The position numbers and the translations under genes were made by a program. A DNA stretch of 63,287 nucleotides, the filler included, from an uncultured Methanosarcinales archaeon (GTDB taxonomy: Archaea; Nanobdellota; Nanobdellia; Woesearchaeales; JAGLXL01), in the NCBI GenBank assembly GCA_964472345.1. It is 6 parts of 6 records of this genome, joined end to end, with 100 filler letters (N's around TTAATTAATTAA, not from the genome) between each part and the next. Parts side by side here need not be neighbours in the genome. Positions count along the whole stretch, not along the records: positions 35,661 to 46,698 come from CAYYLB010000044.1; 5 more parts are not named here. One strand, written 5' to 3'. Positions 1,481 to 43,766 of the stretch are shown here, one piece after another. The notes below the pieces were generated by a model that searched no databases, was not told the origin of the DNA, and saw only the letters and a list, made by a program, of their open reading frames with translations. The stretch's first letter is position 1; each line of letters starts with the position of its first letter.

Positions 1481-4400
1481 AAGTAGCCACCCCAAAAGCT
1501 ACGGAGAACGGCGCCACGGGCAGTAAGTGTACTTGGAGGAGTAAGCCGGTCTTCACTGCCTGCTTTAGGGAAAGGCGCCTCTGGAATCAGAGGAAGAAAG
1601 CCGCTTGGCCCGACCCCGCTGCTGGCATTCGCCTGTAACGTGCGGTTGCTGTCGCCCCAGTCATTGTTGCTCACATTATTTGCCTGTGTGCAATAGACAT
1701 TCCAGAGATAGGTGGTGTTCTGGAGGGTGATGGTGAAGTTATGCGTTCCATTTGCAATCAGCGCACTCGTCTTGTTGAGCGCCCAAGTGTTGCTGAAATT
1801 ACCGTAGAGGCTGCAGTTGGCGGTGCTTGGCCCCGCAACTGAGTAATTGAAGTGGACAGAGCTGGTCGTCCGGTTGGCAAGGTTTGCAGGCGCAAGCAGC
1901 GTCACGTTGGTCTGGTTGGAGGTAGAGGTAGAGGAAGTATTCGACACCGTAACGTTGACAAGGATGGTCGTGAAGTTCACCGCATTGTTCCAGTCGACAT
2001 CATAGCAGGTAACTTCGACCGCATAGTGCTGCACGCTCAGGTTGCTGGTGCTGACGATGTAAGAATGGCTGACGCCTCCGGTGACAAGGCCTGTGGAGCC
2101 GAAGCCCCAGGAATAACTTGCGCCTTCAGTCCGGCTCCGGTAGTTCGCATCAACGACTTCAAGGTAATAGCCGGGGCCGCCGAAGAGGGTATTGTTGCAG
2201 GCACCCGGGTTCACGACAGTCGCATTCATACAGCGCGAAGCGTTGAAGGTGTTATAGTTCATCATCTGGAGGCGGCAGTTCGAGGCCTCGGTAGTCGTCC
2301 AGTTCGCGTCGAAGGTGCTCGAATTGGCCGTCGCGTTCAGCTGCGGAGCGAGGATCGTAATCTTCGGTGGTGTCGTGTCCCGGATGGTGACGACACCACC
2401 GGTGATGGTTGCCGTACCGTTCACTCCGCTCACCGTCGCCCGGAGGTACATCGTGCCACGCGTCCAGTTGCCGGTGGGTGGCTGGATGGTAAAGATAGCG
2501 CTTCCGGTGAGCTGCAGAGCTGACGTGTTAATGAGCGAATAGGTGCTGGAAGTATATTGCCTGCAGCTGTCGCTCCAGCAGTTATTCGATGAGAGGGCAT
2601 ACTCTACACCAGTCACATTCACTGTGGTGGTCGTGCTGCTGTTCGTGTCCCGCACATTCAGCCGGATGGTTATGTTTTCGTCGAGGGCAAACGCTGATTT
2701 GAAGCTCCCGCTGGTGTTGACATTATCCCACCAGCCAGTGTAGACTGCAATGCCATTGAAGTTGAAGCCGCTCCAGTCGGTGATGCGTGTCGCGGCGCTG
2801 CTCGGCGAGCTCCATTCGCTCTGGAGATAGTTGTACCCCACTTTCCAGCCGCTGGGTGGGGTGTAGATGGTGAGATTCTGCGTACCATTGACCGTACAGC
2901 TGCGGACGCCGGAGGTGCGTGTATCACATCCCCCGACGGAGAAATTATACTCCTCGAGGATGCTACGCCATGAGTCAAACCTCCACTGGTAGACCTTGCT
3001 GAGGTTGCCCGTAGTTGCGGCACCACTCGTTGCTTTCGTCACGTTCGCTGGCAGGATCACGTTCACAGATGTGAGCACATTGCTCCCTCCGATGATGCCC
3101 CCCCACTTTATTTGGAAGGGTATGGTTTGGAATGATAGCCAGCCATCATCGGAGTTCCCAACCGAATCGCGGACCTGGACAGCCAGATAGTGATAGTTCC
3201 CCCAGCTTCCGACCGGCCACGTGCTGCCTGAGGGGCAGATGGTGACGCTTGTGTTCCCTAAGAAAGTGCCCGAAGGAGTGAAGTTAGTGTACGTGCGCAG
3301 GGTGCTGCCGCTGCTGCTGTAGACGCGCTCCGTGACGCCCGAGATGTTGTAGGTGCCATTCAGCACAGTGTTAACCCGCCAGTCAGGCTCGTAGATGCTC
3401 AGGGTGCCATTGACGCAAGCATCGTCATCGATGGTATATTGGCGTATCTGGATATCGACACGGAACGGTCGGACCTGGAACCACAGCCAGGCGGTTGCCG
3501 TTTCGTTCTGCAGGTTCCCGAGAGTGAGCTCGCCCCAGTAATAGCCGCTGCTCCAGCTCCCGTTCGGCGTGAGGTTGATGGTTCGCGTGCCGTTGATCAC
3601 GCTCCCTCCGCCGAGGATGGTGAGGTTATAGTCGGTAGGATGCCGGAGCTCGACCGTGCGCTGTGTCACCGGGTCCCACCGGCGCAGGACAGAGCTGTCA
3701 ACGGTCACATTCAGGTAATCGGACGTGTTATAGCCTGACGCAAAGTAACCCCCTTTCTGTGTCTTGGTAGCGGTGACATAAAAGTACATGGACTCGTTGT
3801 TCTTGATGCTGTATTTCCAGTTGGTCCCGTTGATGTCGGTCGGGCGCGCTTCAACGTAGAAGGCGACAGTGTTAAACCACCCGCGCCCCGTTTCACTCCC
3901 GTTGACATCGAGGAGGACCTGCCAGTAGCCGGTGTTCCAGCTCGTCGTTCCGGGAGTGAGATTAATGTTCAGCAGATAGGAGGTGTTGGCGCCGCTCCAG
4001 TACCAGCCACTCGATCGCACAACAGTAATGCTTGTAGCATTGTACTTAGAGGCGTTGTAGTCTGAGCACGGCCACTTGCTACAGTCCTGGACTTTCTTCA
4101 CGCTGATAGTCACATTGCTGCCAAGATCCTGCCCAGTCTGACCCCACTGGCCCGCGTTGTTGATAGTGACATAAAGGGTGATGTTGTTCTTCGCGTTGAT
4201 GTTGTAGGTCGAGGAGCACGAGGTCCCGATGCACTCGACGGGCGAGGCGTAGACCTCCCACCGCTTCACGCCGAACCACGCATAGCCATAGTCGACATTA
4301 CCACCATTGTCAATCCCCTTGAGCACTGCTCGATAGTAGCCGGTATCCCAGACGCCGCCAGGCGCATTGGCAGCTGGTAAGGAGATCGTCCCTCTGCCAT

Positions 4401-6931: not shown

Positions 6932-9900
6932 TCAGCGCCGTCGTGATCGGACACGTTTCCGCTCAATGTGGATGATATAGAGCACGATTGCGAGGATGGC
7001 GACAGCGACGATAACCCAGGTGAATGTTGTGCGATCTGCTTCCGCAGGCAGGAAGAGCTCATCAGTGAGTGGGGGTGTTGCCTCGGGCGATGGTGACGCA
7101 GCCCCGGGCGCCTCGTCGGAAACAGGAGCTGCCTCAGCCGCAGGTTTTGGGGGAGCTTTTGCAGCGACCGCAAACGCGCTGAACCCAGGCGTGCGGGCGG
7201 AATAAATGACATCGAACACGCCGGACCGGACTTTTGTCGTGGGAAGCTCCTGCCAGGCGCCGCTCGTCCAGCGCAGCAGCACGACGGCGTCTTCCGAAAC
7301 GCTGTTGGTGGAGAACCACCTCTGCGGAACAGCAAACTGGATATTGATGTTGGAGACGTCTGCATCGACGAGCTTGCTCTTGGCGATGGAAAGGTGCTTG
7401 TACACCGCCGCATATTGATCCTTCGTGAGTGCAGCAGTCCCCTCTGGCTGCTTGGTGAGCGATGAGACAGTGATTGAGGGCTGCGTAAGCTCACGGAGCG
7501 CCGTGAAACTGATCTGCGTGACAGGGATGAGCGAATTGGTGATGGGATAGCTCGATGCGCCGGGCGGGAGGACATTCCAGGTGTTCGTCGCGCTGGCCTG
7601 AACCGTATCGGCGCCGCCGCTTGCTGCGGTGCCGCCTCCGCCGCCGCCTCCGCTGCCCCCTCCTCCACCAGACGGCGGACTATCTGAGGTCGTCGAAACG
7701 GATTTGTAGGTCGAGAACCCGAGCCCGACAGAGATGGGGATGGTGCAGGTTGTTGTCGTCGAGGTGAACGTGCAGCTTGCGATGCCGGTGACATTCTGGC
7801 AGTTCGTGCCATCATCGTTGCAGTGCTGTACCTGATCGCCTTGGGAGGATGAGGGGATGGTGACGATGACCATGTCGACGCCCGCGCGCTGCAGGAAGCT
7901 CTGGAAGAGGTTTGAATCCATCCCGACGAGGCTCGAGCCGACGACAAAGAGGGAGAGGTTGAGCGTTTGTGCCTCAAAGATGCTGACACCGACGAACATG
8001 ATTGCGGCGGTGCTGTTGGTGGAATTCATGGTGATATTGATGTTGTGGAGCCGGTCGCTCGACGCCCGCAGCGCATAGCTGCTGTTGTAATTGGTGAGGT
8101 TGATTGAGGGGATATCGACAGCCCAGCCGCTCGGGATGTCGAGCCGGAAGGTGATGTTCGAAGCGGAGAGCGAGGTCGTCGCATTGCTGCACGAGCTCAG
8201 GCCGCAGTTGCCGCTCGGATCGCAGACATTGAGCTTGTAGAAGTAAGTCGTATTCCTCACGAGCCCGGTGACATCGACCTCATGGTGGACACGATAGTTG
8301 GTGGATAAGAGGCCGTCGGTGAGCGCTTTGTCTTTGAAGGTCGCATTCAGGCTTGAGCAGGTCGTGTCGTTGTTGTAGAACCTCGCCGTGCCGTTCGACG
8401 GCTCATTCGTGTCGAAGATGATGGTCAGCTCGGTGGGGATCTTCTTGTTGATCTTCGTCCAGACGATGGTGGGGGCGGTGGTGTCGCCTTCGACCGCGCT
8501 GAAGCTGCCAGAGCAGAAGTAGGGGTCATACTTGCAGTCGAAGTCGTTGCAGTCGGTCAGCCCGTCAGCGTCATTGTCCTTGCCGTCTCCGCACGCGGGG
8601 CCGAACTCGCCCGGGAAGAATCCGAACTGGGTGAATGTCGAGCATGAGGAGCTGCTGGAGCCTGAGGTGCTCGTGCAGTCGACCAGTTGCATGTCAATGC
8701 CCTGGAAGTTCGCGGTTCCTGGTCCGATGCGATCAGAGACATTGGAGGCGTTCCCCTGTGCCGAGGCGCTCGTCGCATACGCCCGCCAGGAAGCGCTCGT
8801 GTTGACGTTGGGTTTGCTCGAAAAGCCCTCCTTCCCGATCGCAAACATGGGCCCGTCGACAAAGCTGCAGCTGATGGTCCGATCGACCCGGAAACTGACG
8901 CTCGATGAGACCCACTGTCCGTTCGTGCACTGCTGCGTCAAAAGTGTCTCCGCAAACCTGTTGTCGCTGCTGATCTCCGCAACGTACTTGAACAGGTATT
9001 CGAAGCCGGAGAGGGATGAGTTGTCGAGCGGTGAGCAGCCGCCGGTTGTCGAGCCGTTCGTATCAAGATAGAGATAGTACCGCGAAAGGTTGTTGCCGGC
9101 GCCGATCGACTGCCCTTCATGGAGGGGGACGCCGCCGCACACTGCGGAATAGTTCATGCCCACCGTGGGCATCCCGTACGCAAACGCCTCCGGCGTCTTC
9201 TTCATGCCAAGACCGATGAAATCTAGGTAATCGGCGCCTGACGGCGTCACGTCGCCGCTCGCATCGGCGGCAACGGGGAGCGGCTCATCATGATCGATGC
9301 CTTGGAAGAACGACTGTGAGAATGTGTCATCGCAGAAGCCTGGCGCGGTCAGGACGCGCGTGGCATTTGTCCCGTCGTTGGCGGTCGCGTTTTCCGGAAT
9401 CTGCTCGCTGAGGTTGCCGTTCACGACGACGGTCGAGGTGTTGGTCACGTTCGTGACATTCGCGTTGCCCTCAATGGTGTCAGACCAAGGAGCTATCGGA
9501 AAAGGTACTTCCCAGAGCGCCTCGATGGCCTTTGTCTTGTTGCTGAGATAGTAATGCACGGTCGCCCCGTCGCACGTCGTCGTGTTATAGACATTGCAGC
9601 CCCCCACAGTGCAGGAATCATTCTGGTTTGTTGCAGACCAATTGTACTGGACACGCAGGGTGGTGTTGCAGTAGAGCCGGGTGACATTGAACGCGCGCAC
9701 GGGGGTATTCTCGGTGCCTTTCGCCTGCACAAGCTCAAGGAACGCCCCCGTGCTCCTGTTGAGGAGATAGGAGGACTCATTCTTCGCACCGACGCCAAGG
9801 CCGGTGGGGTGCTGCAGCCCGATCGCAACCCACGTTGCCTGCGGGAAGCGCATATCGCTGAAGCTCACCGAGCCATTGGGATGGTGGAGCGGTCCGTTGA

Positions 9901-11982
9901 AGTCAGTAGACCACCGGCAGTTGCTGTTCGCGCGGCACGCGCTGATGTCCCCGTCGTTCTGGATGCAGCCTCCGATGAAGTTCTTCGATTCGCAGTGCCC
10001 CTCAAACCACACGCAGGTCTGATTGTAGAATGGCGTTGCGTTCCTCGTCGCGTTGTTGCACTGGGTTTGGGCGGTGATGTCGCGGTCGATGCAGGGGCTC
10101 ACGCAATTGTCGGCCCCGAAACCTTCAAAGCCGAAGCCGAACTGGTTGCCCTGCCACCGGCACCCCTCGGCGACGCCCCCGCTCTGGTTGAACTGCAGTG
10201 TCTCGTTGTCTTCGCAGACGACAATGCTCTGCACGTCGCAGAAGCCGAATGGCGACCACTTGCACCCCGCGATGCCATTGCAGTCAGTCGCATTCCTTTT
10301 GGCCCCGCAGTCGCCGAAGAGCGTTTCGTTCTCATGGCAGGTGCCCTCGGCGACATAGGCGCAGACGTTGCCGCCGCCGACGTTCGCGCAGCCCGCAGGA
10401 TCGTTGAAAAGGCTCTCATTGATCCAGCAGAGCTCTGACAGCGGCGCGCAGTAGGAGAAATTGAACACTTCCGTGATCCACGTGCAGCCCGTCGCATTCG
10501 TGCAGTTCCCCTGCGCCTGCGGGATGCCGCCGTAGGTGAACTCATCGTACTGGAAGCAGTTGTTCGTGTCGAAGCCGCCGAAGCCGCCGCAGAACGGATC
10601 CGCCCCGCACTTGAAATCGTCACAGTCGGTATCGCCATTGTTGTCATTGTCGACGCCGTCGAAGCAGATTTCAAACTTCCCCGACTTGGGTTTGCAGAGG
10701 TAAAGGTCGCTGTCCCAGGTGCAGCCGCCCGACGCAGGTGAAGCTGAGCAGCTCGAATTGTCATCGCACTGGAAGCAGTCCTGCTGGCACGTCTTCGCGC
10801 CCGAGCCGAAACAGGAGCGCGTCACATTGTCCCATCGGCAGTCCGCGGTCGAGTTAAGGCAGGACGATTGGGGATTTGGTAGGAGGTTGCAGTCGCCGCA
10901 GAAGCTGTCGCAGCTGAAGCCTCCGCCTCCGAACGTCGACTTACACCACCCGAACCCGTTGAATGCGTTGGTGTCATTTTGGTAAAAGCAGCCCGCGGGG
11001 GAGTTCTCGCACTGCTGCCGGAAAATGGTTGAGTTCGGCCATCTCCCGCCCGTTGAGTTGAACTCGCACGCAAAGCAGTTGCGGCTGCAGTCGCTTAAGC
11101 TGCCGGTGCTGCCGCGGAAATCGCCGCCGCCTCCTCCGACTTCGGAGAACGTCCTGATGGGGCCGCCGAACTCACACCAGCTCTGGGTGCTGAGCGAGTT
11201 CGAAAGCGGGTCAAACGCCGTCTCAGAGCGCCAGATGCCTCCCATGACCTGGCAGGTTGACTCGCTGCTGATGTCCTCAAAATCCTCAAACTGCCCAAAA
11301 TCAAATGCGCCGGCGGAGCAGCGCCCCGTGCTTTCATTCCACGTGCAGGGCATGAAGAACTGCTGGATGAGGATGTTGCAGTTGCTCTGATTGGTGACAT
11401 AGCCTGGCGCTTCACAGCTGAAAACCGGAGGCAAGGCGACATTGCCAGAGGTCTTCGACCTGTTGATGAGGCAGACGGCATTGCTGCTGTTCCATGTGCA
11501 GAGCCCCGTTTTCTGGGTGGATGACTGGTTGGTGCAGAACGAATGGTTCAGGATGGCGCTGCAGTTGAATCCGTCCTGATGGTTGAGGAGCGGCCCAGGG
11601 GTGCAGAGTCCTTGAGCGCCCTGCGACACGTTCCAGGTGCAGTAGCTGCTGTTGAGCAGATCGCACGCATAGCGCGGCAGCAGCTCGCAGTCCGCAGGCG
11701 GAAAATCGGAGTTGTACTCACCCTCATCCTCCTCGATGCAGAGGCCTGATTCACTCCAATGGCACCTGTTCTCGTAATCCTGGACACAGGCAGAGAGATT
11801 GGTGTTGTTCGCGCAGGCGCCGAGCGCCCCGAAGGTGTTGTTGCCGTGCAGGTGACCGACAGACTGGTTGTTGAAGAAGAAAGCGAACGTCGCATTAGGC
11901 GTCGTGTTGCTGCTGAGGAAGACGGAGCGGACAAAAACAGCCCCATAGAACACGTGGCCGCTCCCGTTCAGGAAGCGCACGC
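6932..11982 (-). CDS. Large Cys-rich surface protein with Asp-rich metal-binding motifs, an FN3-like domain, PGF-pre-PGF and a TM anchor (5' truncated by contig end)
   Basis: Repeated C..C.W...C modules; EICFDGVDNDNNGDTDCDDFKC and CGDGKDNDADGLTDCNDFDC; HHEVDVTGLVRNTTYFYKLNVCDPSGN (FN3-like); TPGFSAFAV; TM plus RKRVRSRRR. Confidence 0.8.
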
Positions 11983-18240: not shown

Positions 18241-21200
18241 TTAAATGTTGTTGCCATTCTTCCTCTTTGTTTTTGCCCTGCCCCTCTGGTGCGGCCTGTG
18301 CGTGAATTGCAGCCGCCGAATCCCCTTCAAGCCGCCGTAGGGCACTTCACGGCCGGAAGCCTGCTGGGAGCGAGGCGGCCTGATATGCGCCTGATAGTAA
18401 CGCCACAGGCCGATTGATGCGAGCACGACCGCAAGCGCAATGATGATAAGGATAAAGAGCCTTCCGCGCTTCTGGGACGCTTCCGGCTGCAGGGGCTGCT
18501 CTGCGGATGGCCCGCAGCGGCCTTCCTCGCAGGCTGCGCCGAGCGTGCAGTCACGGTCGTCGAGACATTCGAGCCCCCCGGCAAAGCAGGTGTCGCGCAG
18601 GCAGTTGCCGCTCTCGCAATCAGCGCCGACGCTGCAGGATGAGCCGATGCCGCAGGGCAGGCAGCTCCCGCCGCAGTCGATGCCTGACTCGTCACCGTTG
18701 AGCAGGCGGTCGCGGCAGGAAGGCGTGTAGGTGGAAGTGCAGGAGCGGGTTTCATCGGGCTTGGGAAGGCGGGAGATGACATTCAGCGTCGTGCGGATGA
18801 CGCGCCGTTCGAGGCAGCTGCTGCTGTCGGTGCAGGTGCGGCGCTGCAGCCCATCGGAGCAGGCGCTCCAGGAAGTGCAGCCCCATTTCTGCTCGCAGAA
18901 GCTCTCGCCGCTGCCGCTGCGGCCGCCGCCCCCGCCGCCGCCAGTTGCCGGCTGCTGCTCCTGAGAAGGCTCCTGCGGCGAGCCGGGCTCCCCCGCGGCG
19001 CAGACGCCGCAGTCTGACGGGCAGGTCGCGCAGCTCTCGAAGGCCTGGCAGGTGGCAGCGACGTCGCCGCACTGGTTGTAGACCTGCGAGAGGTTCTTGG
19101 GGCACGTGTAGGTAAGGCCGTTGAAGACCACCGAGCCGCTGACGCAGACGCCGTCGGTCACGTTGGCATCAATGAGCGTCATGTTGGTGATAGTCGAGTT
19201 CAGCACGACGGAATTGTTGAGGAGCGAGCCGTTCACGGCCGCACCGGTGCAGGTCGCGTTGCGCTCGACGCTGTCCACGAGGGTGCAGCGGACGTTGAAC
19301 GATCCGATGACGGTCGCGTTGGTCAGGTTGCTCTGGAGCTTCGTCGAATTGATGATGGTGGATGCGCTTGCGGTCGAATTGACGAGCGTTGAGTTCGTCA
19401 CGGTGCTGCCGGTGACGGTGCTCCCTTCCACGACGCTCTGGTTGAGCGTGCTTCCGCTGAGGGTGGAGCCGTTCACGACCGAGCGACTGATGGTGCCGCC
19501 GGTCACCGTCGAATCTGTCTCGTTGCTGCCGATGAGCGTGCCCCCGATGTCCACGGAGTTGATGACCAGCGCGTCGATCTTCGTGGCGTCGGTCAGGGTG
19601 CTGTTGATGAGCGTGCTGTTGATAACCATGCTGCTGGTGACGGTCGAGTCGTTGACCTCGCTGTTGTTGACGGTCGAGTTCGTGATGGTGCTCGGATCGA
19701 GGAAGCTCTCCTGGACGAACGAGCCGATGATGAGCGTGTCGAACGCGACCGTGTCTTCAAGCGTCGCTTGCCCGACGGTGACGTTGTCCAGAGTGACATT
19801 CGTGACGATGCTCTCGTTCAGCAGGCTGTCGGTGATGTTCGAGCTGTTGACGCTGCTGTTGATGGCGAAGCTGTTCTGGACGAACGAGTCGAGGGCGACG
19901 TACACCGAGCGCTCGCCCGGCGGGTTTGCGAGGTTGGCGTTCGATGCCGCGTCAATGGCGGTCGCACGGAGGCGGTGGCTGCCGCTGCCCGCAGGGCTCC
20001 AGACGGACTGCCACGAAGCCGTGCCGGTGATGGGCTGCGGCTCGTCGCGGATGGCAAGCAGCGTCTGCGCAACGCGGATGGCGTCGGCGGCGATGCCCCG
20101 GACGGTGAATGGGAAGTGGTTGAAGCCGAGAAGCTCATGCTGACGCGGCGCGAGGAACTGGGAAGCGGGAGGCTCGCGATCGACCTGGAAGGCGAGCGCC
20201 GTCGTTGCCGTGGAGCCTGCCGCGTCGGACGCGTACTTGACGAGCGAATAAACACCGTCAGGGAGGGGGGAGATATCCACCTCGCTGGTCCAGAGGGAGG
20301 GAGTGGCGGCGGAGCGCGCGAAGCTGAGCCTGCTCCTGCTCGCATCGTAGTAGCTGATGAAGGCAGCCGTTGCGTCGCGCACCGCGATGGACGAGGTGAG
20401 GCCGACGACGCCGCGCACGTCAACGGGTGAGATGCTCCACGTCAGGCCTCCGTCGCGGGTGAATGCGCTCTTCAGGTTCTCGCCGGACGCATCGTAGTAG
20501 CTGATGAATGCTGTCTGCGCATCGGATGCGTGAATCGCGGTGGCGAGGCCTACGTTGCCCATCGTGTCGGGCGTCTTGACTGTCCATGCGGCGCCGCTGT
20601 CGTGCGAAACCGCGACTTTCAGGTCGCCGCTGGTAGCATCGTAATAGCTGATGAAAAGGTCGCCTGCGGACGGCGCTGCGATCGCAACGTGCATGCCGGC
20701 ATTGCCCTGCGCGTCTATGACAGAGCGCTGCCAGGTGATGCCTCCGTCGGCGGACTTCGCGAACCTGAGGTTTCCGTTCGTCGCGTCGTAATAGCTGAGG
20801 TAGAGCGTGGCTGCGGCAGGAGCGGCGAGCGCCGTGTACCGGCCGACGTCACCAACCGCATCGACGCGCTGGACGCTCCACTGGCCGCCTGCGTCGCCTG
20901 AGGAAGCGAGCTTCAGGTCGCCGCTGGTAGCATCGTAATAGCTGATGAAGAGATCCGTTTGCGTCGGGGCGGCGATCGACGGGGAGAAGCCGACGGCGCC
21001 GTCGCTGTCGATGGTCTTTCTGGACCAAGTGATGCCGCCGTCATGCGAGGCAGCGAACCGGAGCATCGTGTCTGCAGGGAATGTGGCATCGCGGTAGCTG
21101 ACATAAAGGTCATCTGCTGATGGCGCCGCGATGGAGGGGGAGAGGCCGGTCTTGCCTGCTGCATCGATGAGCACTGAGGGGGACCAGGTGATGCCGCTGT

Positions 21201-23859
21201 CGGAGGAGCGCGCGAACCTGAGGGACTTGGTGAGGGAGTCATGGTAGGCGACTACGAGCGGGCCGCCGGCTGACTGCGCAAGCGAGGAGTAGGAGCCGAC
21301 GCTCGGGCCATCGTCGATGACGCTGAGCACCCAGCGGAGCAGCGATGAGGACTGTGGGGTGCGGGGGATGACCGGCTCACCGCTCCCGTCAATGACCTCA
21401 TAGGAGATGCCTGCGATCTCCGCATCGAGCACTTCCTCGACCGCCCCGAAGTTGGTGTTGAGGATCGCATCGCGCTCCGGGTAGAGGAAGGTGATGGTGG
21501 GGGCGGTGTTGTCGACGGTGATGGAGAGCGCTGCAGAACGGATAATGTTCCCTGCGCGGTCGGCTGCCTGCGCCACGATGCTGTGGGTTCCGTCGGAAAA
21601 CTGCAGGGTGTCCCATGTCGCGGCGCAGGCGCTCTGGAGCTGCGCGGCAGCGGGGGTGCAGGTGCCCAGCACGGCGTTGTCGATGAGGATTTGGATAGTG
21701 CGGATGCCGCTGTGCGCGTCGGCTGCGAGGGCGACGATGCTTTGGGCGTTGGCGACTGACCGGCCGGGCTGCGGCGTGGGGCTGCTGAATGAGAGCAATG
21801 GCGGAAGCGTATCAATGAGAAAATCCGCAGTTGCGAGCGACTCCTGACCCTGCGCTGAGACTGCTTTCTTCACTAAGGTATAATTGCCCGGGGCAAGGGC
21901 GCCTGTGCCTACGGTGGCGAACCAGATCGTCGGCGTGAGGTTCGTCTGGTTGAGCCAGGGAGTCACGTTCCCGGAGGCGTTCGCCAGCCGGAAGATGACA
22001 TAGTTGAGCTCAGCGCCGGCGATGATGTCGGTGATGTTCAGCTCCGTGGTGATGATGCTGCCGTTCGCCGGTTCGGTGAGCGTTATGACCGCCTCACGCA
22101 AGGGAGGAAGCGGGGGCACCGGCAACTCAGGGGGAGGCGGCAGCTCGGGGGGAGGCGGGACGGGAAGCAGCTCCTCCTGTGGCGCGGTGGGGCTCTGGTT
22201 CACGATGAATGTGAGCGATGCGGTGCTGGTATCTCCATCGGCGCCTGTCGCGTTCTTGATGAGGGTGTAGTTCCCATCGGCAAGCCCGCTGATGTTGATG
22301 AAGCTGGTCCAGTTGGAAGGGGACTGGTTGGTCTGGTTGAGCCATGGCGTAAGCTCGCCGGACTGGTTGGAGAGCTGGTAGAGCACATAATCAATGTCCC
22401 CGGTGATGTTCTCGGTGATGTTGAAGCTTTCGCTGACGACGGAGCCGTTCTGGGGGTCGGTGATCGTGATGGTTACCGCCGGGGACGGTTCCGGCAGCGG
22501 CGAGGGGTCGCAGGCGTCGCCGATCCCGTCCGCGTCGCTGTCAAGCTGATCGGTGTTGGCGTTTCGCGGGCAGTTGTCAGCGGCGTCGGGCACGCCGTCA
22601 TTGTCATCGTCGGGGTCGCAGGCGTCTCCCTGGGCGTCACCATCCAGGTTCGCCTGGTCTGTGTTGCCGATTAACGGGCAGTTGTCATTCGCATCGGGAA
22701 TGCCGTCGCCGTCGGAATCAACGGGCGGCGGCGGGGGCGGGGGAGCGGCTGCGTATTCGATAACAAGCCGCGGGCGCCTGCTGGCGTCGCTGTAATCAGA
22801 TGTGTAAATCGAGTAAAGGGCGTTGTTCTCGCGCCCGTCGATGAGGAGCAGGCCATTGTTTGCATTTGGATCCGTGAGCCAGCGCTGGACAAGCTCCGGG
22901 GCGATGCTCCAGCTGTTGCGCTGCCCGAGCTGCGGAGTGATGGCGCTCAGCGGCTGGGCGGCATGATCCTGAAGGCCGCTGGCGAGCTGCTGCTGCCAGA
23001 GGTTGCCGGGGCCGGCGTAGGTGTCCTCGTAGGCGCCGAACTCCGTCCAGGGCTTCAGCGCCTCATAGATGCCGAGCTGGCTGATTCCGCTTCCTGATGT
23101 GGCGATAGGATAGGTGCCGCCGGGGCCCGCGGGGTTCCCGTTGCCGTGCATCTCCGGGATAAAAAGCTCGAGCGTGGCGCGCTGCACGGCGATGCCCTGC
23201 GGGACGGTGGAGAGATCGAACCTGAGCAGGCCACGATACTTATAGGGAGCGTTCGGATGCTCTCCGACGTCCATGAACCCGTGCGAGCCGTAAGGGGTGC
23301 AGCAATTCCGGTTATTGTAGCGGATGTCGGTGCGGATGGAGGTGTCGATGCCGCTTGCGGAGCCGGGCTGGAGCGTGATGGAAGGGATGGTGATAATCAG
23401 CTGCGGGCGGAGCGTTGCGGGGTCGCCGGTTCCGATGTTGCTGTCGCTCGAAACGAAGCACTTCGCGTCCGGTGCGAGCGTTCCGGTTTCCGTACTGTCG
23501 ATGAACGCAAGGCCGAGATTCTGCCGCGTGCCGGCTTTCCACTCACGGTAAACGCCGGTGATGTCAAGCCGCTCGACCTCTCCGGTGGCCTGCACGTCGG
23601 CGCTTGCGATGATTGTCGGCTCAGTTGTTGGCTGCGTGCTCCAAGTTGTGCTTTCGCTCCATGCCGAGGTGACGGGGCGAATGGTGACGGTGCGGGTGGT
23701 CGCGGTGGTCGTGGCGAAACCTGAAACGAGCCTCAGCTCCACTTTCTCGACGCTGGAAGGCAATGATGCGACATCAAACTTCAGGAAGGAGCGGTGCGGC
23801 TTGGTTGCCGTGGCGAGGCCATAGCAGAGGCCGCCGGTGGGGAAGGCGCCGAACTGGTT
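18241..23859 (-). CDS. Giant mosaic surface protein: DNRLRE x2, TSP type-3 repeats, Ig-like domains, BNR/Asp-box propeller, S/T/N-rich beta-helix, Cys-rich domains, TM anchor (5' truncated)
   Basis: Frame open to the gap ([14 protein letters not shown]); [15 protein letters not shown]...[15 protein letters not shown] (TSP3); repeated [18 protein letters not shown] (Asp-box); [17 protein letters not shown] pentapeptides; C-terminal TM. Confidence 0.8.
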
Positions 23860-23959
23860 NNNNNNNNNNNNNNNNNNNNNNNNNNNNNNNNNNNNNNNNN
23901 NNNTTAATTAATTAANNNNNNNNNNNNNNNNNNNNNNNNNNNNNNNNNNNNNNNNNNNN

Positions 23960-26434
23960 GGGGGCACGACGAAACGCTCCCTTCGGTCGAACATTAGAAT
24001 AATAACCTAAATCTTCTCTCTTAGTAAAATCTTTGATTTCAGTAATAAACTTACTTTCCGAGCATTTTTGAGAATACATAATTACTTCTTCTTTTGCCCT
24101 CATAACCGCAACGTAAAATAATCTTCTCTCCTCTTGTTCTCTCAATCCATCATTATTTTTTATTGCTGGTTGGAAAATATCCGGATTTTCTAATTCACAT
24201 GGAAAACCGTATAAGTCTTTATCAACATTCAATATCAGAACAATTCTAGCTTGTAACCCTTTACTTTTGTGAACTGACATAATATGGACGCAATTAGGTT
24301 TATCCGCTTCTTCAGAAATAGGAATTCCTTGTTTTTGAGCGTACTCACTAATAAAATTTCTTAGTTTAGGTTTATTTGCAATTCTAAGAAGAATCATAAA
24401 TTCGTCATAGTGATAATTCTTTGTTGTATGATACCCTTTTATGGTGTCAAGACAATGTTTTGCAATTTGCTCGTAATATTGACTAAAGAACTTCTTTTGG
24501 TGTTTTGAAGAATAAACAAGAATAGGTTTTGATTCTTCAGAATTGGAAACCGTTTTCTTTTTAATTTGACCATCTTTATTGTTTTTTATTATACAAGCTC
24601 CAACTTCTACAATAGATTTTATGCTTCTATAATTTTTTGTTAAATCTGTTCTTGCTGGATTGGAGAAATACTTATCAAAATTTATGAAAAAATCAAGATT
24701 AGAACCCGCAAAACCCATGATGCTTTGCCAGTCATCTCCAACACAGAAAAGTTTACAATTTTTATTCTTACTCATCAATTCTTTGATTAATTCATATCTT
24801 TGTGTGCTAATATCCTGATATTCATCTATAAGAATATGATCGTATACGTCTTTGTAAAACTCTCTATTATCTTTTAGATAATCAACAGCAAGATTAATCA
24901 TATCAGAAAAATCAATATGATTATCTTTCTCTAACCCTTTTTGATATTTAACATAGATTACATTGGCAATTTTGGCAAAAGAGGTTTGTTTAGGAGACCA
25001 TTTTTCTTTATTTAGTCTGTTTTCTATATCGGGTGGGTACAACCTGTAAGTTTTTGCGATAACAATAAATTTGGAAATATTAATCGAGATTGTTTTTACA
25101 AACTCTTTACATTCTTCCCAAACACGCTCTACTAACTCAGTATAGGAAATTATATTCAAATTAAATTTCTCATTTGGTTGTTTCTCTTTTAGAACTTTAA
25201 TGAATCTTTCCTCTAATACTTTATATAAAACATTTCTTTCAAAATCAGCTTGTGAGGTTTCAAATAGTGATTTACTGTTTGACTTATACTTTTCTTTCTT
25301 AATATTCATAGTTTTTATGTATTCTTTAGTGGGATTATCCCCAGAAAACCACTTTGGAACTTGCCCATTTTTACCTATTGCCCAATGTTCTAAATATAAG
25401 TCAAAATCAGGGAAATAAAAATCAGGTTTTGGGGTATATTCTTTTCTATCACTATCTTTATATTTCATCCATTCCGCTGGATTCTCATAGATTACATTTA
25501 TTTTTTTCCCATTCAAGTTGTGCATTAAAAAGAAATTCAAAATCTCTCTTTCGGATTCACTTTTAACCTTTGTACCGTCTAAAGCAGTATAATTTAGACT
25601 TCTTTGATAATTATAGAACTCTTCTTTTTTCTCAAAATCAGCTTCTTCTTTGACGAGTTGGTCATCTCCATAACGCTTCATAAAATTAATGATTTCATTT
25701 TGCAACTCTTTATTATCAGCAATCTCTTTGTCGAATATTTTTTGAATATATCTTTGATATTTCCAATCTTCTGAACATTCTGGTTTCAGTTTCGGTGCTT
25801 CTCCACTTTTAACTTTATGAACATCTTCAATAATTTTTTTACCTAATGAGTGGAATGTTCTGATTTCTACATCAGCATTATATCTCTTTTGCAGACGTTC
25901 TTTCATTTCATTAGCTGCTTTGTTTTGAAAAGCTAGAGCTAAGATTCTAATTGGTTTAATGGTGTCCGATTTTCTTTTAATAAGATAAGCTATTCTTGTA
26001 ATCAAGACTTCTGTTTTTCCAGAACCTGCTCCAGCTACAACTAAATTGTGTTTATCATCAGTAATAATTGCGGTTTGTTGGTCATCATCTAAAACGAGTT
26101 TTTCTCGTTTAAACAAGTTTTTATACTCTTTTTTCTTTTTATTTACAAATTCAGGATTATAATTTGTTATATTTTCATCGAACTTTTCTAGTTTATTAAG
26201 ATTATTTTGTAAGTTAGACTTTAATCCAAAATCCCAAAATAAATACCATGGAATCTTTATTTGCGTGTTGCCTTCTTTTATCAGATTTAACAAATTTGCT
26301 TTAAAATCGTATATCAAGTAAGTATCTTTTTTGATAAATGAACCCCATTCTTTTTCTAATCTATTAACTGCCATATTAGAATGTCTAATAATTTCCTCTT
26401 CTTTCTTATTTATGAAATTTCTAATAAGTCCCAT
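23960..26434 (-). CDS. UvrD-family superfamily 1 helicase (helicase IV-like), AT-rich, stop lost at contig end
   Basis: GAGSGKT, DEYQD, VGDDWQSI, NYRS, HKSKGLQ and EERRLFYVAVMRAK motifs. Confidence 0.9.
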
Positions 26435-36606: not shown

Positions 36607-36629
36607 GGTTCCTCTGTCCTTGGAATGGA

Positions 36630-36713
36630 TGCGGACGGCAGGATTCGAACCTGCGTAGGCACTAAGCCATACGGCCCTGAACCGTACCCGTTTGGCCACT
36701 CCGGCACATCCGC
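36630..36713 (-). tRNA. tRNA-Leu(CAG), intronless
   Basis: GCGGATG acceptor stem, TACGG-TTCAGGG-CCGTA anticodon arm, long variable arm, GGTTCGAATCC; TATA about 25 nt upstream. Confidence 0.95.
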
Positions 36714-36739
36714 ACAACGGGCCGCACAGGCCCCGGGAT

Positions 36740-39964: not shown

Positions 39965-40042
39965 ACGCGAGCCCCGTTTTGCGCTGGCTATAAAAACATT
40001 TCTAAAACCAACCTTTAAAAGAAACGTCCCGTTCACCTCCCC

Positions 40043-40657
40043 GTGGACGACCTGCACCTATGGCTCAATGGGCGCTATCGCGATGCGGAGAAACTTCGCC
40101 CCCGCTTCGCAACGGCAAGGCCATTTCCCCACATCGTCCTGCGCGGCTTCTTTCAGGAAGAAAAGATAAGCCCGATTGAACGCGCCCTGCGCCGGCAGTT
40201 GTTCACCCGAACCGCAGCAGACCTCTACCAGTTCTCCCGCACGCCTGACTTCCAGCGCCTCAGCGACCGCGCGCTCAGGACGTTCCATTCCTTCTTCCGC
40301 TCGCCTGCGTTCATCAACTATATCGGCACCATGACTGCTGCCTCATTAAGCGGCACGATCGACATGGCAGGCTTCCTCTACCAGGACACCGACTACCTGC
40401 TGCCGCACGACGACCGGCTGCACGGCCGCGCCGTCGCGTACATCCTCAACCTCTCGAAAGGCTTCGCAAAAAAAGACGGCGGCCAGCTGCAGCTCCTCGC
40501 GGCGAAAAACAACAGGCCGTCGCGCGCCGTCAAAACAATCGCTCCGCTGCGCAACACGCTGACGCTCTTCAAGGTCACGCCGCGCTCGTTCCACCAGGTT
40601 GCGGAAGTGCTCAGCAGAAAAAAACGCTTTTCCATCGCGGGGTGGTTCCATGGCTAA
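40043..40657 (+). CDS. 2OG-Fe(II) oxygenase, OGFOD1/Tpa1-like catalytic domain
   Basis: PFPHIV..F, DLYQF, TIDMAG, YLLPHDD (HxD), AYILNL, GGQLQL, SFHQVAEV (distal His), RFSIAGWFHG (RxS). Confidence 0.88.
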   Translation: MDDLHLWLNGRYRDAEKLRPRFATARPFPHIVLRGFFQEEKISPIERALRRQLFTRTAADLYQFSRTPDFQRLSDRALRTFHSFFRSPAFINYIGTMTAASLSGTIDMAGFLYQDTDYLLPHDDRLHGRAVAYILNLSKGFAKKDGGQLQLLAAKNNRPSRAVKTIAPLRNTLTLFKVTPRSFHQVAEVLSRKKRFSIAGWFHG

Positions 40658-41291
40658 ATGGGGGGGTATCCATCCGGCGTATCTCCAGCTGCAGACGCTG
40701 CGGCGCGCTGCATCAGCCTATCATAACAACCATCCGCACAGCATCCAGCTGACGCAGTTTCTCCTGCCACAAGCCTGCCGTGCGCTGCTTCTTGCTGCGA
40801 AGGGCGCGCGCTGGAAGCGCCACGAGCAGTACGGGCAGGCGCGCTTCGCAACCGCTGCTCTTCCCCCACCTCTCCGGCAGTTTCTTGCGGGCGAACCGCT
40901 TCAAGCGCTGCTGCATGCGATCACGGGCAGGCAGCCTGGAACTGCACGGCTCTTCGCCTTCCGCCACCGCGATTACACATTGCTCAGCGACGGTGTACGC
41001 CAGCCGGCAGGCACCCTCTTCCAGCTCGAGCTTACGCCGCGCTGGCAGGCCGCATGGGGCGGATTCACCAGCTTTGTCGCGAATGGCCGTGAGCCGCTGC
41101 GCATCACTCCCATGCCCAACAGCCTCGTGCTTGCCGAGCAGCAGGCAGGGGTGCAGCAGTTTGTGAAGTATGTGAATCATCACGCAGGCATCACTCCACG
41201 GATCATGGTGCAGGGCGCTCTCCATGGCGATCACAAGCCCCGCTTCAGGCCGGATGAGCCGGAATTTCTTGCCTCTGCAGCGGTGGAATGA
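40650..41291 (+). CDS. OGFOD1/Tpa1/Ofd1 C-terminal-domain-like protein (non-catalytic DSBH)
   Basis: IHPAYL, SIQLTQFL, DYTLLSD, WQAAWGGFTSFVA, PMPNSLVL, FVKYVNH; ATG overlaps the upstream stop (ATGGCTAA) and follows GGGGTGG. Confidence 0.75.
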   Translation: MAKWGGIHPAYLQLQTLRRAASAYHNNHPHSIQLTQFLLPQACRALLLAAKGARWKRHEQYGQARFATAALPPPLRQFLAGEPLQALLHAITGRQPGTARLFAFRHRDYTLLSDGVRQPAGTLFQLELTPRWQAAWGGFTSFVANGREPLRITPMPNSLVLAEQQAGVQQFVKYVNHHAGITPRIMVQGALHGDHKPRFRPDEPEFLASAAVE

Positions 41292-41297
41292 TAAGAA

Positions 41298-41424
41298 TGG
41301 GCCCGGGCAGACTCTCATGCGTTGGCATCCACCGCCGCTTTTGAACTGCCGACCACCTGCTGACTTCGTGCGAGGAGCGTCGCCCTATAAGACAGGCGCT
41401 CCAACCAGGCTAAGCTACGGGCCC
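41298..41424 (-). tRNA. tRNA-Ile(TAT) with two introns: 37/38 (41362-41385) and 59/60 (41312-41339)
   Basis: GGGCCCG acceptor, GCTTAGCCTGGTTGGAGC D-arm, CCTGT-CTTATA/A-GCAGG anticodon arm; mature length 75 nt; TATA upstream. Confidence 0.87.
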
Positions 41425-41870: not shown

Positions 41871-41964
41871 TGCGGCTGCCGGGGATCGAACCCGGGTCAC
41901 AACCTTTTTTCACGGGGTTTTTCCCGCATGGCAAGGTCGTATTCTACCACTAAACCACAGCCGC
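41871..41964 (-). tRNA. tRNA-Gly(GCC) with a 23-nt canonical 37/38 intron (41906-41928)
   Basis: GCGGCTG acceptor, CGACC-TTGCCA/A-GGTTG, intron hairpin GCGGG/CCCGT, GGTTCGATCCC. Confidence 0.92.
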
Positions 41965-42218: not shown

Positions 42219-42370
42219 TGGGCCCGACCAGACTTTCACTCCCGTTCAGTCCCGTTCAGCGGAGCTGAAGAGATTCGAACTGGTGGCCTTCTCCGCTCGT
42301 CGCTGTGCGCTGCTTCTGCATCCCGCAGCAGCATGTAAGGGAGACGTCATAGCCGCTAGACCACGGGCCC
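42219..42370 (-). tRNA. tRNA-Val(TAC) with two introns: 37/38 (42296-42333) and 59/60 (42233-42273)
   Basis: GGGCCCG acceptor, TCTCC-CTTACA/C-GGAGA, ACCAG TTCG AA/T...TGAA AG/T CTGGT; mature length 73 nt; TTTATAAAA upstream. Confidence 0.86.
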
Positions 42371-42515: not shown

Positions 42516-43766
42516 ATGAGATCGTCAGTGGGCGAACTGCGGCTGGAGCCGTATGAATCGGGAAGGAAAGGGAAGCCTGATCGCTTCGAGGCGGGGCTGG
42601 CTCATCTCATCGGGGCTTACCTGCTCGAGCTCGATCGAGACGCGCGGTTCAACGTCCGGGTGGAGGGAAAGTACTCAAAGAAAGATGAGAAACCGGCGCT
42701 CATCATCTCGGGGGAGGTTTCAGAGAGTTTGCTGACAGCATCGCTTCGGGAGCCTTTCACGGATATCGCCATTCGCTATTATAACCAGATCCATCAGGCA
42801 CAAGCAACCGCCGACGATTTTGTTTTTGCCTATCTCTTAAACCCGCAGGCAACGCCTCTCGCCGCCAACGGCCATGCGGGCGACTCCGGGCGTGCGATGG
42901 CGTTTGCTTTCCGCGGCGCACCGGGCTTTATGCCCTGGGAAAGGTATCTTGCAGTTGAGATCAGGCAGCTCATTGATCAGATCTACCAGAAAGGTGGAGC
43001 CGTGCCCCTGGAAATCATGATGAAGTCTGGCGTTTACCGCATTGACGGCCTGCGCGCTGACGGAAAGGTAGACGTCGGAGTCCTTTTCAATGGGCACAAG
43101 CTGCGTGCGCTCCAAGATATTACCTTATCGCTTGAGCACGAGCAGGGATTGCCGTTGGCAGAATTGCGGGAGAACGTGAGTACCGTCATCGCTGCATATA
43201 TTGGGCAGTTGTCGGAAACATACAACATCAATCTGGGGAATCCCAGGATCACGGTGAATCCCGGCGGCGCCTGGAACGACGGCGACTGGCGTGTCGATGC
43301 CGGCTCGGCTGAAGCGAAGCCGCACGAGGACTTTTTCGGCAACCGAGGCAATATGGAGGACGCGCCGTGGGGCGAGGACGGGACAAAGCCATCCGGTGTT
43401 GGGACGCTGCTCGCGTGGCATATTGCACGCTGGATCGTTGCCAATGAACTAGCGGAAACGGCAAGGGTGGTTTTGACCTACCGCATCGGCACCAGCGACG
43501 TCGGCCTGAATATCACGACAGGCGGTACAGGAAAGCACTCACAAAATAGGCTTGAGGCGCTTGTGCGAGACGCGATACCACTCAGCCTGAAAAAGGCAAC
43601 TGATGCGCTTCAGCTAAGGGATCCGAAGACCTATCAGCAGATTGCTCATGCAATGGACTGGTTCATCGACCCGGACTACCCGTGGAACATTACGCATCTT
43701 TTTCGGCGAAGCTCTTCCCGTCTTCTGCCTCGACTTGCCGACAGAGCGATCCCGCGGCTCCGGTGA
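42516..43766 (+). CDS. Divergent bacterial/eukaryote-type methionine adenosyltransferase (MetK-like)
   Basis: ESGRKGKPD, ISGEV, AGDSG, FMP, LRADGK, VNPGG, DAG, GEDGTK, YRIG and YPW align in order with MetK motifs, but several catalytic residues are substituted. Confidence 0.75.
   Translation: MRSSVGELRLEPYESGRKGKPDRFEAGLAHLIGAYLLELDRDARFNVRVEGKYSKKDEKPALIISGEVSESLLTASLREPFTDIAIRYYNQIHQAQATADDFVFAYLLNPQATPLAANGHAGDSGRAMAFAFRGAPGFMPWERYLAVEIRQLIDQIYQKGGAVPLEIMMKSGVYRIDGLRADGKVDVGVLFNGHKLRALQDITLSLEHEQGLPLAELRENVSTVIAAYIGQLSETYNINLGNPRITVNPGGAWNDGDWRVDAGSAEAKPHEDFFGNRGNMEDAPWGEDGTKPSGVGTLLAWHIARWIVANELAETARVVLTYRIGTSDVGLNITTGGTGKHSQNRLEALVRDAIPLSLKKATDALQLRDPKTYQQIAHAMDWFIDPDYPWNITHLFRRSSSRLLPRLADRAIPRLR

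Follow-up and report, generated by a model that had tools for sequence, protein, structure and literature searches.

The human enzyme OGFOD1 (4NHX/4NHY), the trans-3-prolyl hydroxylase of uS12/RPS23 Pro62, consists of a catalytic double-stranded beta-helix (DSBH) domain followed by a metal-free DSBH domain. The same architecture and fold are found in Saccharomyces cerevisiae Tpa1 (3KT1/3KT4/3MGU/4NHK) and in Schizosaccharomyces pombe Ofd1 (C-terminal domain, CTD, 6E0T). Passages of PMC4396695 describe the packing of the N-terminal domain (NTD) and the CTD of OGFOD1 via their minor sheets and name uS12 Pro62 as the one established substrate of the family; the one established reaction of OGFOD1/Tpa1 is the 3-hydroxylation of this loop proline (PMC4396695, PMC4543633, PMC8153317). 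[quoted passage not shown] Here we describe a pair of adjacent genes from a DPANN archaeon, located at 40043-41291 in a 63,287-nucleotide stretch of DNA (the window) from a metagenome-assembled genome (MAG; G000), which probably encodes a two-subunit 2OG/Fe(II) prolyl hydroxylase of the OGFOD1/Tpa1/Ofd1 type.

The pair shares with OGFOD1 the HxD...H motif with its arginine and the GWFHG end of the first domain, and the fold alignment of gene 1 with OGFOD1 shows 30% identity. OGFOD1 is, however, a single chain with a 31-residue proline-rich linker and an acidic insert of approximately 60 residues in the CTD (PMC4396695), whereas the archaeal pair consists of two polypeptides of 204 and 213 amino acids (aa) with neither linker nor insert, in an archaeal host. 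Tpa1 differs by its 95-residue helical linker, by dimerisation elements in the CTD and by dihydroxylating the proline, and the Ofd1 CTD acts in Sre1 degradation (passages of PMC4396695). The bacterial single-domain prolyl hydroxylases (Pseudomonas P4H/PPHD acting on EF-Tu; 4J25/4IW3) share the DSBH fold and also target the translation machinery, but they match the pair much more weakly (gene 1, E 5.7e-10; gene 2, E 1e-7) and have no second DSBH partner. A literature search of main texts found no paper describing an archaeal OGFOD1/Tpa1. Two candidates were discarded: 'TPA1' in PMC10833072 is a transporter code and not the hydroxylase, and PMC8407392 mentions 2-oxoglutarate ferredoxin oxidoreductase only. 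Added here are junction statistics over 48 pairs, the association of the pair with superoxide dismutase (SOD), and approximately unbiased (AU) tests which exclude a grouping of the eukaryotic with the Asgard C-domains.

Gene 1 (40043-40657, plus strand) starts with GTG and encodes a protein of 204 aa homologous to the catalytic NTD of OGFOD1/Tpa1. It matched the Pfam family 2OG-FeII_Oxy_4 (E 3e-28, 98.6 bits; cut-off 27), and its best sequence match in the Protein Data Bank (PDB) was human OGFOD1 (4nhx, residues 79-259, E 5.1e-29), followed by yeast Tpa1 (E 2e-10). The AlphaFold2 model, calculated from a 48-row alignment, reached a pLDDT of 97.4. When compared with the PDB by Foldseek, it was closest to OGFOD1 (4nhy_A, E 6.5e-18, TMq 0.89) and Tpa1 (TMq up to 0.92), unrelated 2OG oxygenases coming next with E 5.6e-12 or worse; for both genes the folds that followed OGFOD1/Tpa1 were PolD, PasI, P4H and PHD2, with E 1e-12 or worse. 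The metal ligands of the HxD...H triad, H122 (40406-40408), D124 (40412-40414) and H184 (40592-40594), and the 2OG-binding arginine R195 of the RxS motif (40625-40627; all on the plus strand) are invariant in the alignment of 48/48 archaeal gene 1 homologues. The motifs LLPHDD, SFHQVAEV and RFSIAGWFHG and the intact HxD...H/Arg site, which an earlier note on this DNA had reported, were all found in the translation, and gene 1 is a catalytic DSBH domain whose Fe(II)/2OG site is complete. A TATA-box-like TTTAAAA read from the sequence at 40014-40020 (plus strand) lies approximately 26 nt upstream of the GTG; this position would suit a TATA box of the archaeal type and suggests that the transcript is leaderless.

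Gene 2 (40650-41291, plus strand) starts with ATG in the +1 frame relative to gene 1 and encodes an Ofd1_CTDD homologue of 213 aa. A match to Ofd1_CTDD above the Pfam cut-off, the check set beforehand for this half, was obtained (E 1.9e-9, 37.8 bits; cut-off 27), and the sole PDB sequence match was OGFOD1 (residues 467-540, E 6.3e-6). The AlphaFold2 model from a 48-row alignment (pLDDT 91.4) was closest in the Foldseek search to OGFOD1 (4nhy_A, E 8.5e-14, TMq 0.75), then to the S. pombe Ofd1 CTD (6e0t, E 3.9e-12, TMq 0.72) and then to Tpa1, with unrelated 2OG oxygenases next at E 2e-8 or worse. The motifs noticed earlier (IHPAYL, DYTLLSD, WGGFTSFVA, PNSLVL and FVKYVNH) were again all found in the translation, and the human OGFOD1 motifs with which the earlier note had compared both genes are present in the HMMER alignments to 4nhx. 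OGFOD1 is thus the best match of each gene by sequence and by fold, and the assignment of both halves to the OGFOD1/Tpa1 type in that note stands. The metal triad is absent from gene 2; no His or Asp is invariant among the 48 gene 2 homologues, the sole invariant residues being G138, Y174 and N176. The final 20 or so residues form a low-confidence tail which is common only to an 82%-identical relative, a stand-alone gene 2 found on 5 contigs. Profiles of the N- and C-domains detect each other (E 1e-7 to 1e-21), which marks the two domains as paralogues.

The occurrence of the pair was followed by several searches. Of 60 relatives searched at the protein level, six have gene 2, and all of these (6/6) show the same two-gene layout. 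A conserved-peptide pattern scan of one genome per prokaryotic species gave 16 loci, the records being titled Candidatus Woesearchaeota (10), Nanoarchaeia/Nanoarchaeota (2), 'uncultured Methanosarcinales' (2), Candidatus Yanofskybacteria (1) and Candidatus Heimdallarchaeota RS678 (1). By profile search, the gene 2 family is present in 75/401 genomes of the window's phylum (58/281 genera; all sampled genomes at least 90% complete) and in 7/400 genomes of the Asgard phylum to which the Heimdall genome belongs, six of them strong matches, so that the distribution of OGFOD1/Tpa1/Ofd1 is not limited to eukaryotes. The 61 fetched loci with matches represent 48 distinct pairs (the window included), and in all of them the N-domain and the C-domain have an open reading frame (ORF) each, the C-domain ORF directly following the N-domain ORF. 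Among the positives of the 401 phylum and 400 Asgard genomes, no frame matching the gene 2 profile was longer than 336 aa, and hence no fused form was observed. The split proposed from this one locus is therefore genuine and conserved across DPANN and Asgard archaea (48/48 distinct pairs).

The gene 2 profile matched 1899 of 1.84 billion representative proteins with E <= 0.001, 337 of them with E <= 1e-30, and among the best 150 of the 1899 matches 146 were stand-alone proteins of 165-219 aa. The four longer proteins in these best 150 (P0029, P0037, P0117 and P0157) were rejected as prokaryotic fused forms; they bear eukaryote-type linkers, and P0117 comes from the fungus Basidiobolus. The window's genome has exactly one match each to PF13661 and PF10637. 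The two genes diverge in step: their pairwise distances correlate with a Mantel r of 0.57, a value reached by 0/2000 permutations. The catalytic half is better conserved than the gene 2 half (mean identity among homologues 41% and 27%, respectively). One pair was found in a MAG titled Candidatus Yanofskybacteria (L015), a candidate phyla radiation (CPR) bacterium, and two in MAGs titled uncultured Methanosarcinales (L019 and L021; the L019 genome, G063, has approximately 0.9 Mb). Their sequences nest among the DPANN copies, and the titles possibly reflect mislabelled bins or transfers.

We consider uS12 prolyl 3-hydroxylase the most likely function of the two-subunit enzyme, and this assignment is probably correct, judging from the closeness of both halves to the uS12 hydroxylases. 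The genome has one uS12 gene, in which the QPNSA loop is kept as EAKQPNSAMRKC, just as the earlier note had expected of the cognate substrate. Several points weigh against the assignment. The loop is conserved in archaea generally, and its presence consequently does not discriminate. Translation genes occur near the pair only sporadically (uS7 at L017; an eRF1-family gene at L022), and several loci are flanked by DNA-metabolism genes. A search of G000 for oxygen-related genes gave no COX1 or other haem-copper oxidase, and likewise no cytochrome bd, Fe/Mn SOD (Sod_Fe_C), rubrerythrin or desulfoferrodoxin/superoxide reductase; the only oxygen-defence genes matched were AhpC-type peroxiredoxins, and oxygen exposure of the organism is therefore not evident. 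Finally, the association of the pair with Fe/Mn SOD in the phylum (72/75 pair-bearing vs 158/326 pair-less genomes; odds ratio 25.5, Fisher p 1.7e-16) comes from a test that ignores shared ancestry and from a table crossed by hand from two listings, which includes the unpublished SOD-positive, pair-negative genomes G790, G678 and G823 (minus those, the pair-less figure is 155/323).

The same family of enzyme might act on something other than uS12, whether a nucleic acid, a small molecule or a different translation factor. EF-Tu is hydroxylated by a bacterial P4H (PDB title 4iw3), and a role of Tpa1 as a DNA dealkylase has been proposed and disputed (PMC8153317, PMC6746446). DNA-metabolism genes lie near the pair at about ten loci; they include dCTP deaminase (L012, L019-L021), RadA (L018, L026), PCNA (L049, L067), PolX (L006) and TatD (L045). 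At L025, in a MAG titled Woesearchaeota UBA10207, the gene 1 homologue forms one 361-aa frame (1138-2220) in which the oxygenase domain is preceded by a domain of the pyrimidine-dimer DNA glycosylase type (Pyr_excise, E 6.4e-22, residues 10-87). This fusion possibly reflects a link to DNA repair or an assembly accident. Against another substrate, both halves are far closer to uS12 hydroxylases than to any other solved oxygenase, the neighbours are heterogeneous with none recurring across clades, and the single fusion in one MAG may be an accident of assembly or annotation. We therefore regard a substrate other than uS12 as a serious but rather unlikely alternative.

No conserved flanking partner was found among the 89 nearest neighbours at 47 loci, and this heterogeneity indicates that the pair is a self-contained module. 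Some individual neighbourhoods were recorded. In a Woesearchaeota MAG (L017), an Fe/Mn SOD gene lies upstream of the pair and the uS7 gene downstream of it (946-1602 and 2797-3393). At the Heimdall locus L022, the eRF1-family gene is two genes away and an EAP30/Vps36 gene is on the same contig, while at L055 the pair adjoins MsrA/B. In four related Asgard genomes (L029-L032; G115-G118), the pair is flanked by genes for HMG-CoA reductase and an aconitase-family protein, a synteny not seen in DPANN. The isolated cases L017, L022 and L055, like the DNA-metabolism genes and the L025 fusion, are suggestive only.

DPANN lineages are usually modelled as anaerobes, and the earlier note had called an O2-dependent enzyme surprising in such a lineage. 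Fe/Mn SOD was found in 230/401 genomes of the window's phylum, and the pair-bearing genomes almost always carry it, the exceptions being G000, G637 and G735. Within the two largest families the trend was the same, although weaker (12/13 pair-bearing vs 10/16 pair-less genomes in one, 17/17 vs 19/25 in the other). The pair thus occurs almost only in lineages with the equipment to withstand oxygen, which points to an oxygen-exposed lifestyle and counts in favour of the proposed hydroxylase. Since the pair-bearing lineages carry SOD, the paradox is largely removed for the phylum; what stands of the surprise is that G000 itself lacks an SOD match.

The origin of the family was addressed by joint trees of both domains, in which each half roots the other. 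A quick search of the full set, which had 154 rows and 206 columns from 48 archaeal pairs plus 29 eukaryotes, separated the two domains with a support of 100 in the Shimodaira-Hasegawa-like approximate likelihood-ratio test (SH-aLRT). The eukaryotes formed one clade per half (support 97 in each), and these clades fell among DPANN sequences, where the backbone was weakly supported. A reduced set of 20 DPANN, 6 Asgard and 12 eukaryotic representatives, hand-chosen to span the clades and leaving out 27 DPANN rows and 17 eukaryotes (76 rows, 204 columns), was analysed by a careful search with a site-mixture model. The eukaryote clade was then supported by 100/99 and 100/100; in the N half the eukaryotes were sister to one DPANN clade (L053, L008 and L062; 75/73), and the Asgard copies grouped with another DPANN subclade, in the N half (80/90) as well as in the C half (98/94). 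Holding the eukaryotic and Asgard C-domains together, a grouping chosen after the tree was seen and tested for the C-domain, cost 19.9 lnL and was rejected by the AU test (p 0.0022). The Asgard copies look like the result of exchange with DPANN archaea and not like the eukaryotic stem, and no archaeal copy derives from within the sampled eukaryotes. Holding all archaeal C-domains together was not rejected (delta lnL 4.9, p-AU 0.35), and because archaeal monophyly costs so little, a position of the eukaryotes inside the archaea is not established. A fast AU test (IQ-TREE -fast, LG+G4) which had rejected archaeal CTD monophyly (p 0.013) was withdrawn since its trees were not optima; the 'free' fast tree had lnL -51076, and a fuller constrained search improved on this with -50989.

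The earlier note had suggested that the pair possibly reflects a state of the eukaryotic enzyme before fusion. In the trees, the eukaryotes do form one clade and the Asgard copies are not their sister, while the data are compatible with archaeal monophyly. It is possible, though doubtful, that the archaeal two-subunit enzyme is the ancestral form, and that the eukaryotic single chain of OGFOD1/Tpa1 arose from it by gene fusion and linker insertion, with a DPANN-like donor. In the opposite direction, the archaeal pair might have come from a eukaryotic single-chain gene which was transferred and then split, and would then be no pre-fusion ancestor. Archaeal monophyly with the eukaryotes as sister, which was not rejected, would suit such a history, as would the patchy occurrence of the pair in both archaeal phyla; moreover, the grouping of the Asgard copies with one DPANN subclade implies that the pair moves between archaeal lineages. 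However, no archaeal sequence is nested in the well-supported eukaryotic clade, the eukaryotes lie inside archaeal diversity in both paralog-rooted halves, albeit on a weak backbone, and one ancient fission would have to be assumed, since the point of the split is identical in all archaeal copies. Descent from a eukaryotic gene thus appears fairly improbable.

The junction of the two genes is unusually regular. In the window, the start of gene 2 lies in the 8-nt overlap ATGGCTAA (40650-40657, plus strand), which reaches over the TAA stop of gene 1 and the two sense codons before it, and the gene 2 ATG is made from the His codon CAT of gene 1 and the next G. A Shine-Dalgarno (SD)-like GGGGTGG (40639-40645, plus strand), which arises from the conserved codons for (A/G)GW in gene 1, precedes this ATG by 4 nt. 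The coordinates of both ORFs agree with the earlier note. The junctions of the 48 pairs likewise have a G-rich GGNTGG stretch ahead of the gene 2 start, and their typical form is GGN-TGG-TTY-CAT-GNN-TRA; the codons for the conserved Gly-Trp-Phe-His with which the catalytic domain ends thus provide the SD-like stretch as well as the gene 2 ATG. The genes overlap by 1 to 14 nt in 43/48 pairs (8 nt in 25, 11 nt in 11, 14 nt in three, 4 nt in three and 1 nt in one) and are separated by gaps of 1-4 nt in four pairs and of 69 nt in one; two of the 'gap' junctions also hold an upstream in-frame ATG from which the overlap would be 8 or 11 nt. Gene 2 starts with ATG in 46/48 and with TTG in 2/48 junctions. 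The archaeal gene 2 proteins start within a few residues of the motif W-I-x-P-x-Y-L, which in eukaryotes comes after the linker of 31 (OGFOD1) or 95 (Tpa1) residues (passages of PMC4396695), and no linker residues are found between the domains in the archaeal pairs. We read this arrangement as a translational coupling of gene 2 to gene 1.

A programmed +1 ribosomal frameshift at the gene 1 stop, yielding a single eukaryote-like fused polypeptide, might be considered in view of this regularity and of the +1 frame of gene 2 in 43/48 pairs. Such frameshifting is very improbable because every junction has its own start codon, with the G-rich SD-like stretch ahead of it, because five pairs are in other frames (four in +2 and the one with the 69-nt gap in frame 0), and because the codon before the stop varies (GGC, GCC, GAT, GGT, GCT, GAA and others) with no conserved slippery site; the linker of OGFOD1 and Tpa1 is also absent from the archaeal proteins. 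Contigs from runs X3 (40302-40804) and X4 (40368-41291), two further groundwater samples of one study, cross the junction without an indel, and their sole difference, G>A at 40664, is synonymous in the gene 2 frame; the split which the earlier note had proposed is thus bridged. An erroneous frameshift from sequencing or assembly, or the decay of a pseudogene in this MAG, which could be suspected from the seven-G run just past the junction (40660-40666) where a one-base change would fuse the frames, is practically ruled out by the conservation of the split in all 48 pairs, from genomes of 22-58% GC, by the invariant catalytic residues, by the unchanged junction in the independent contigs and by the stand-alone 82%-identical gene 2 relative.

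For two coupled genes encoding a uS12 hydroxylase, the following mechanism can be proposed. The pair would be transcribed from one promoter, and gene 2 would be translated by coupling through the SD-like stretch and the ATG inside the gene 1 end. The two proteins are predicted to pack like the NTD and CTD of OGFOD1 into a heterodimer, which would use O2 and 2OG for the 3-hydroxylation of the proline in the uS12 QPNSA loop. Hydroxylation may thereby tie the chemistry of the decoding centre to the supply of oxygen, iron or 2OG in an oxygen-exposed, non-respiring DPANN archaeon.

The window (1-63287) consists of six contigs of a single MAG (C40, C41, C42, C44, C45 and C66) with N spacers between them, and gene order across the spacers is therefore meaningless. 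The gene pair is on contig C44 (35661-46698). The genome comprises 1.26 Mb in 120 contigs, is 100% complete and 0.31% contaminated according to marker genes, and has its GTDB family or order in common with records titled Candidatus Nanoarchaeia and Woesearchaeota. The genes for eIF-6 and deoxyhypusine synthase and the intron-bearing tRNAs on contig C44 bear out the assignment of the host to the DPANN archaea. The location of the pair inside a tRNA cluster, also claimed earlier, holds in part: the tools detected a tRNA-Leu (36626-36714) and, on the minus strand downstream of the pair, an intron-bearing tRNA (41871-41964, 54.3 bits) and a tRNA-like match with a 39-nt insert (42260-42370, 26.2 bits, below the Rfam cut-off of 29), while the remaining tRNA-like stretches were not detected. 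In a further minus-strand stretch downstream of the pair (41297-41424), a GGGCCCG/CGGGCCC acceptor-like stem was seen by eye but called by no tool. On the same contig, a 416-aa ORF (42516-43763) had as its sole, weak matches the bacterial/eukaryotic-type S-adenosylmethionine synthetase domains (47 and 33 bits). A UvrD/REP-type helicase ORF of 840 aa (23912-26434) has a local GC content of 29%, compared with 49-65% elsewhere in the window, and possibly represents foreign DNA or a part of contig C42 that was mis-binned. Very long minus-strand ORFs were found at 6932-11980 and 18241-23763 (1682 and 1840 aa; contigs C40 and C41).

A conserved archaeal version of the enzyme changes the 'eukaryote-only' and 'not archaea' picture of this protein modification. 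The pair represents a minimal, naturally separated NTD/CTD system for probing the enigmatic second domain, and with it the origin of a ribosome modification of eukaryotes can be put to the test. Through its association with SOD, it also flags oxygen exposure in DPANN lineages. If the split form is indeed ancestral, oxygen-dependent hydroxylation of the decoding centre would predate eukaryotes and would have come to them from a DPANN-like donor, not by vertical descent from the sampled Asgard lineages.

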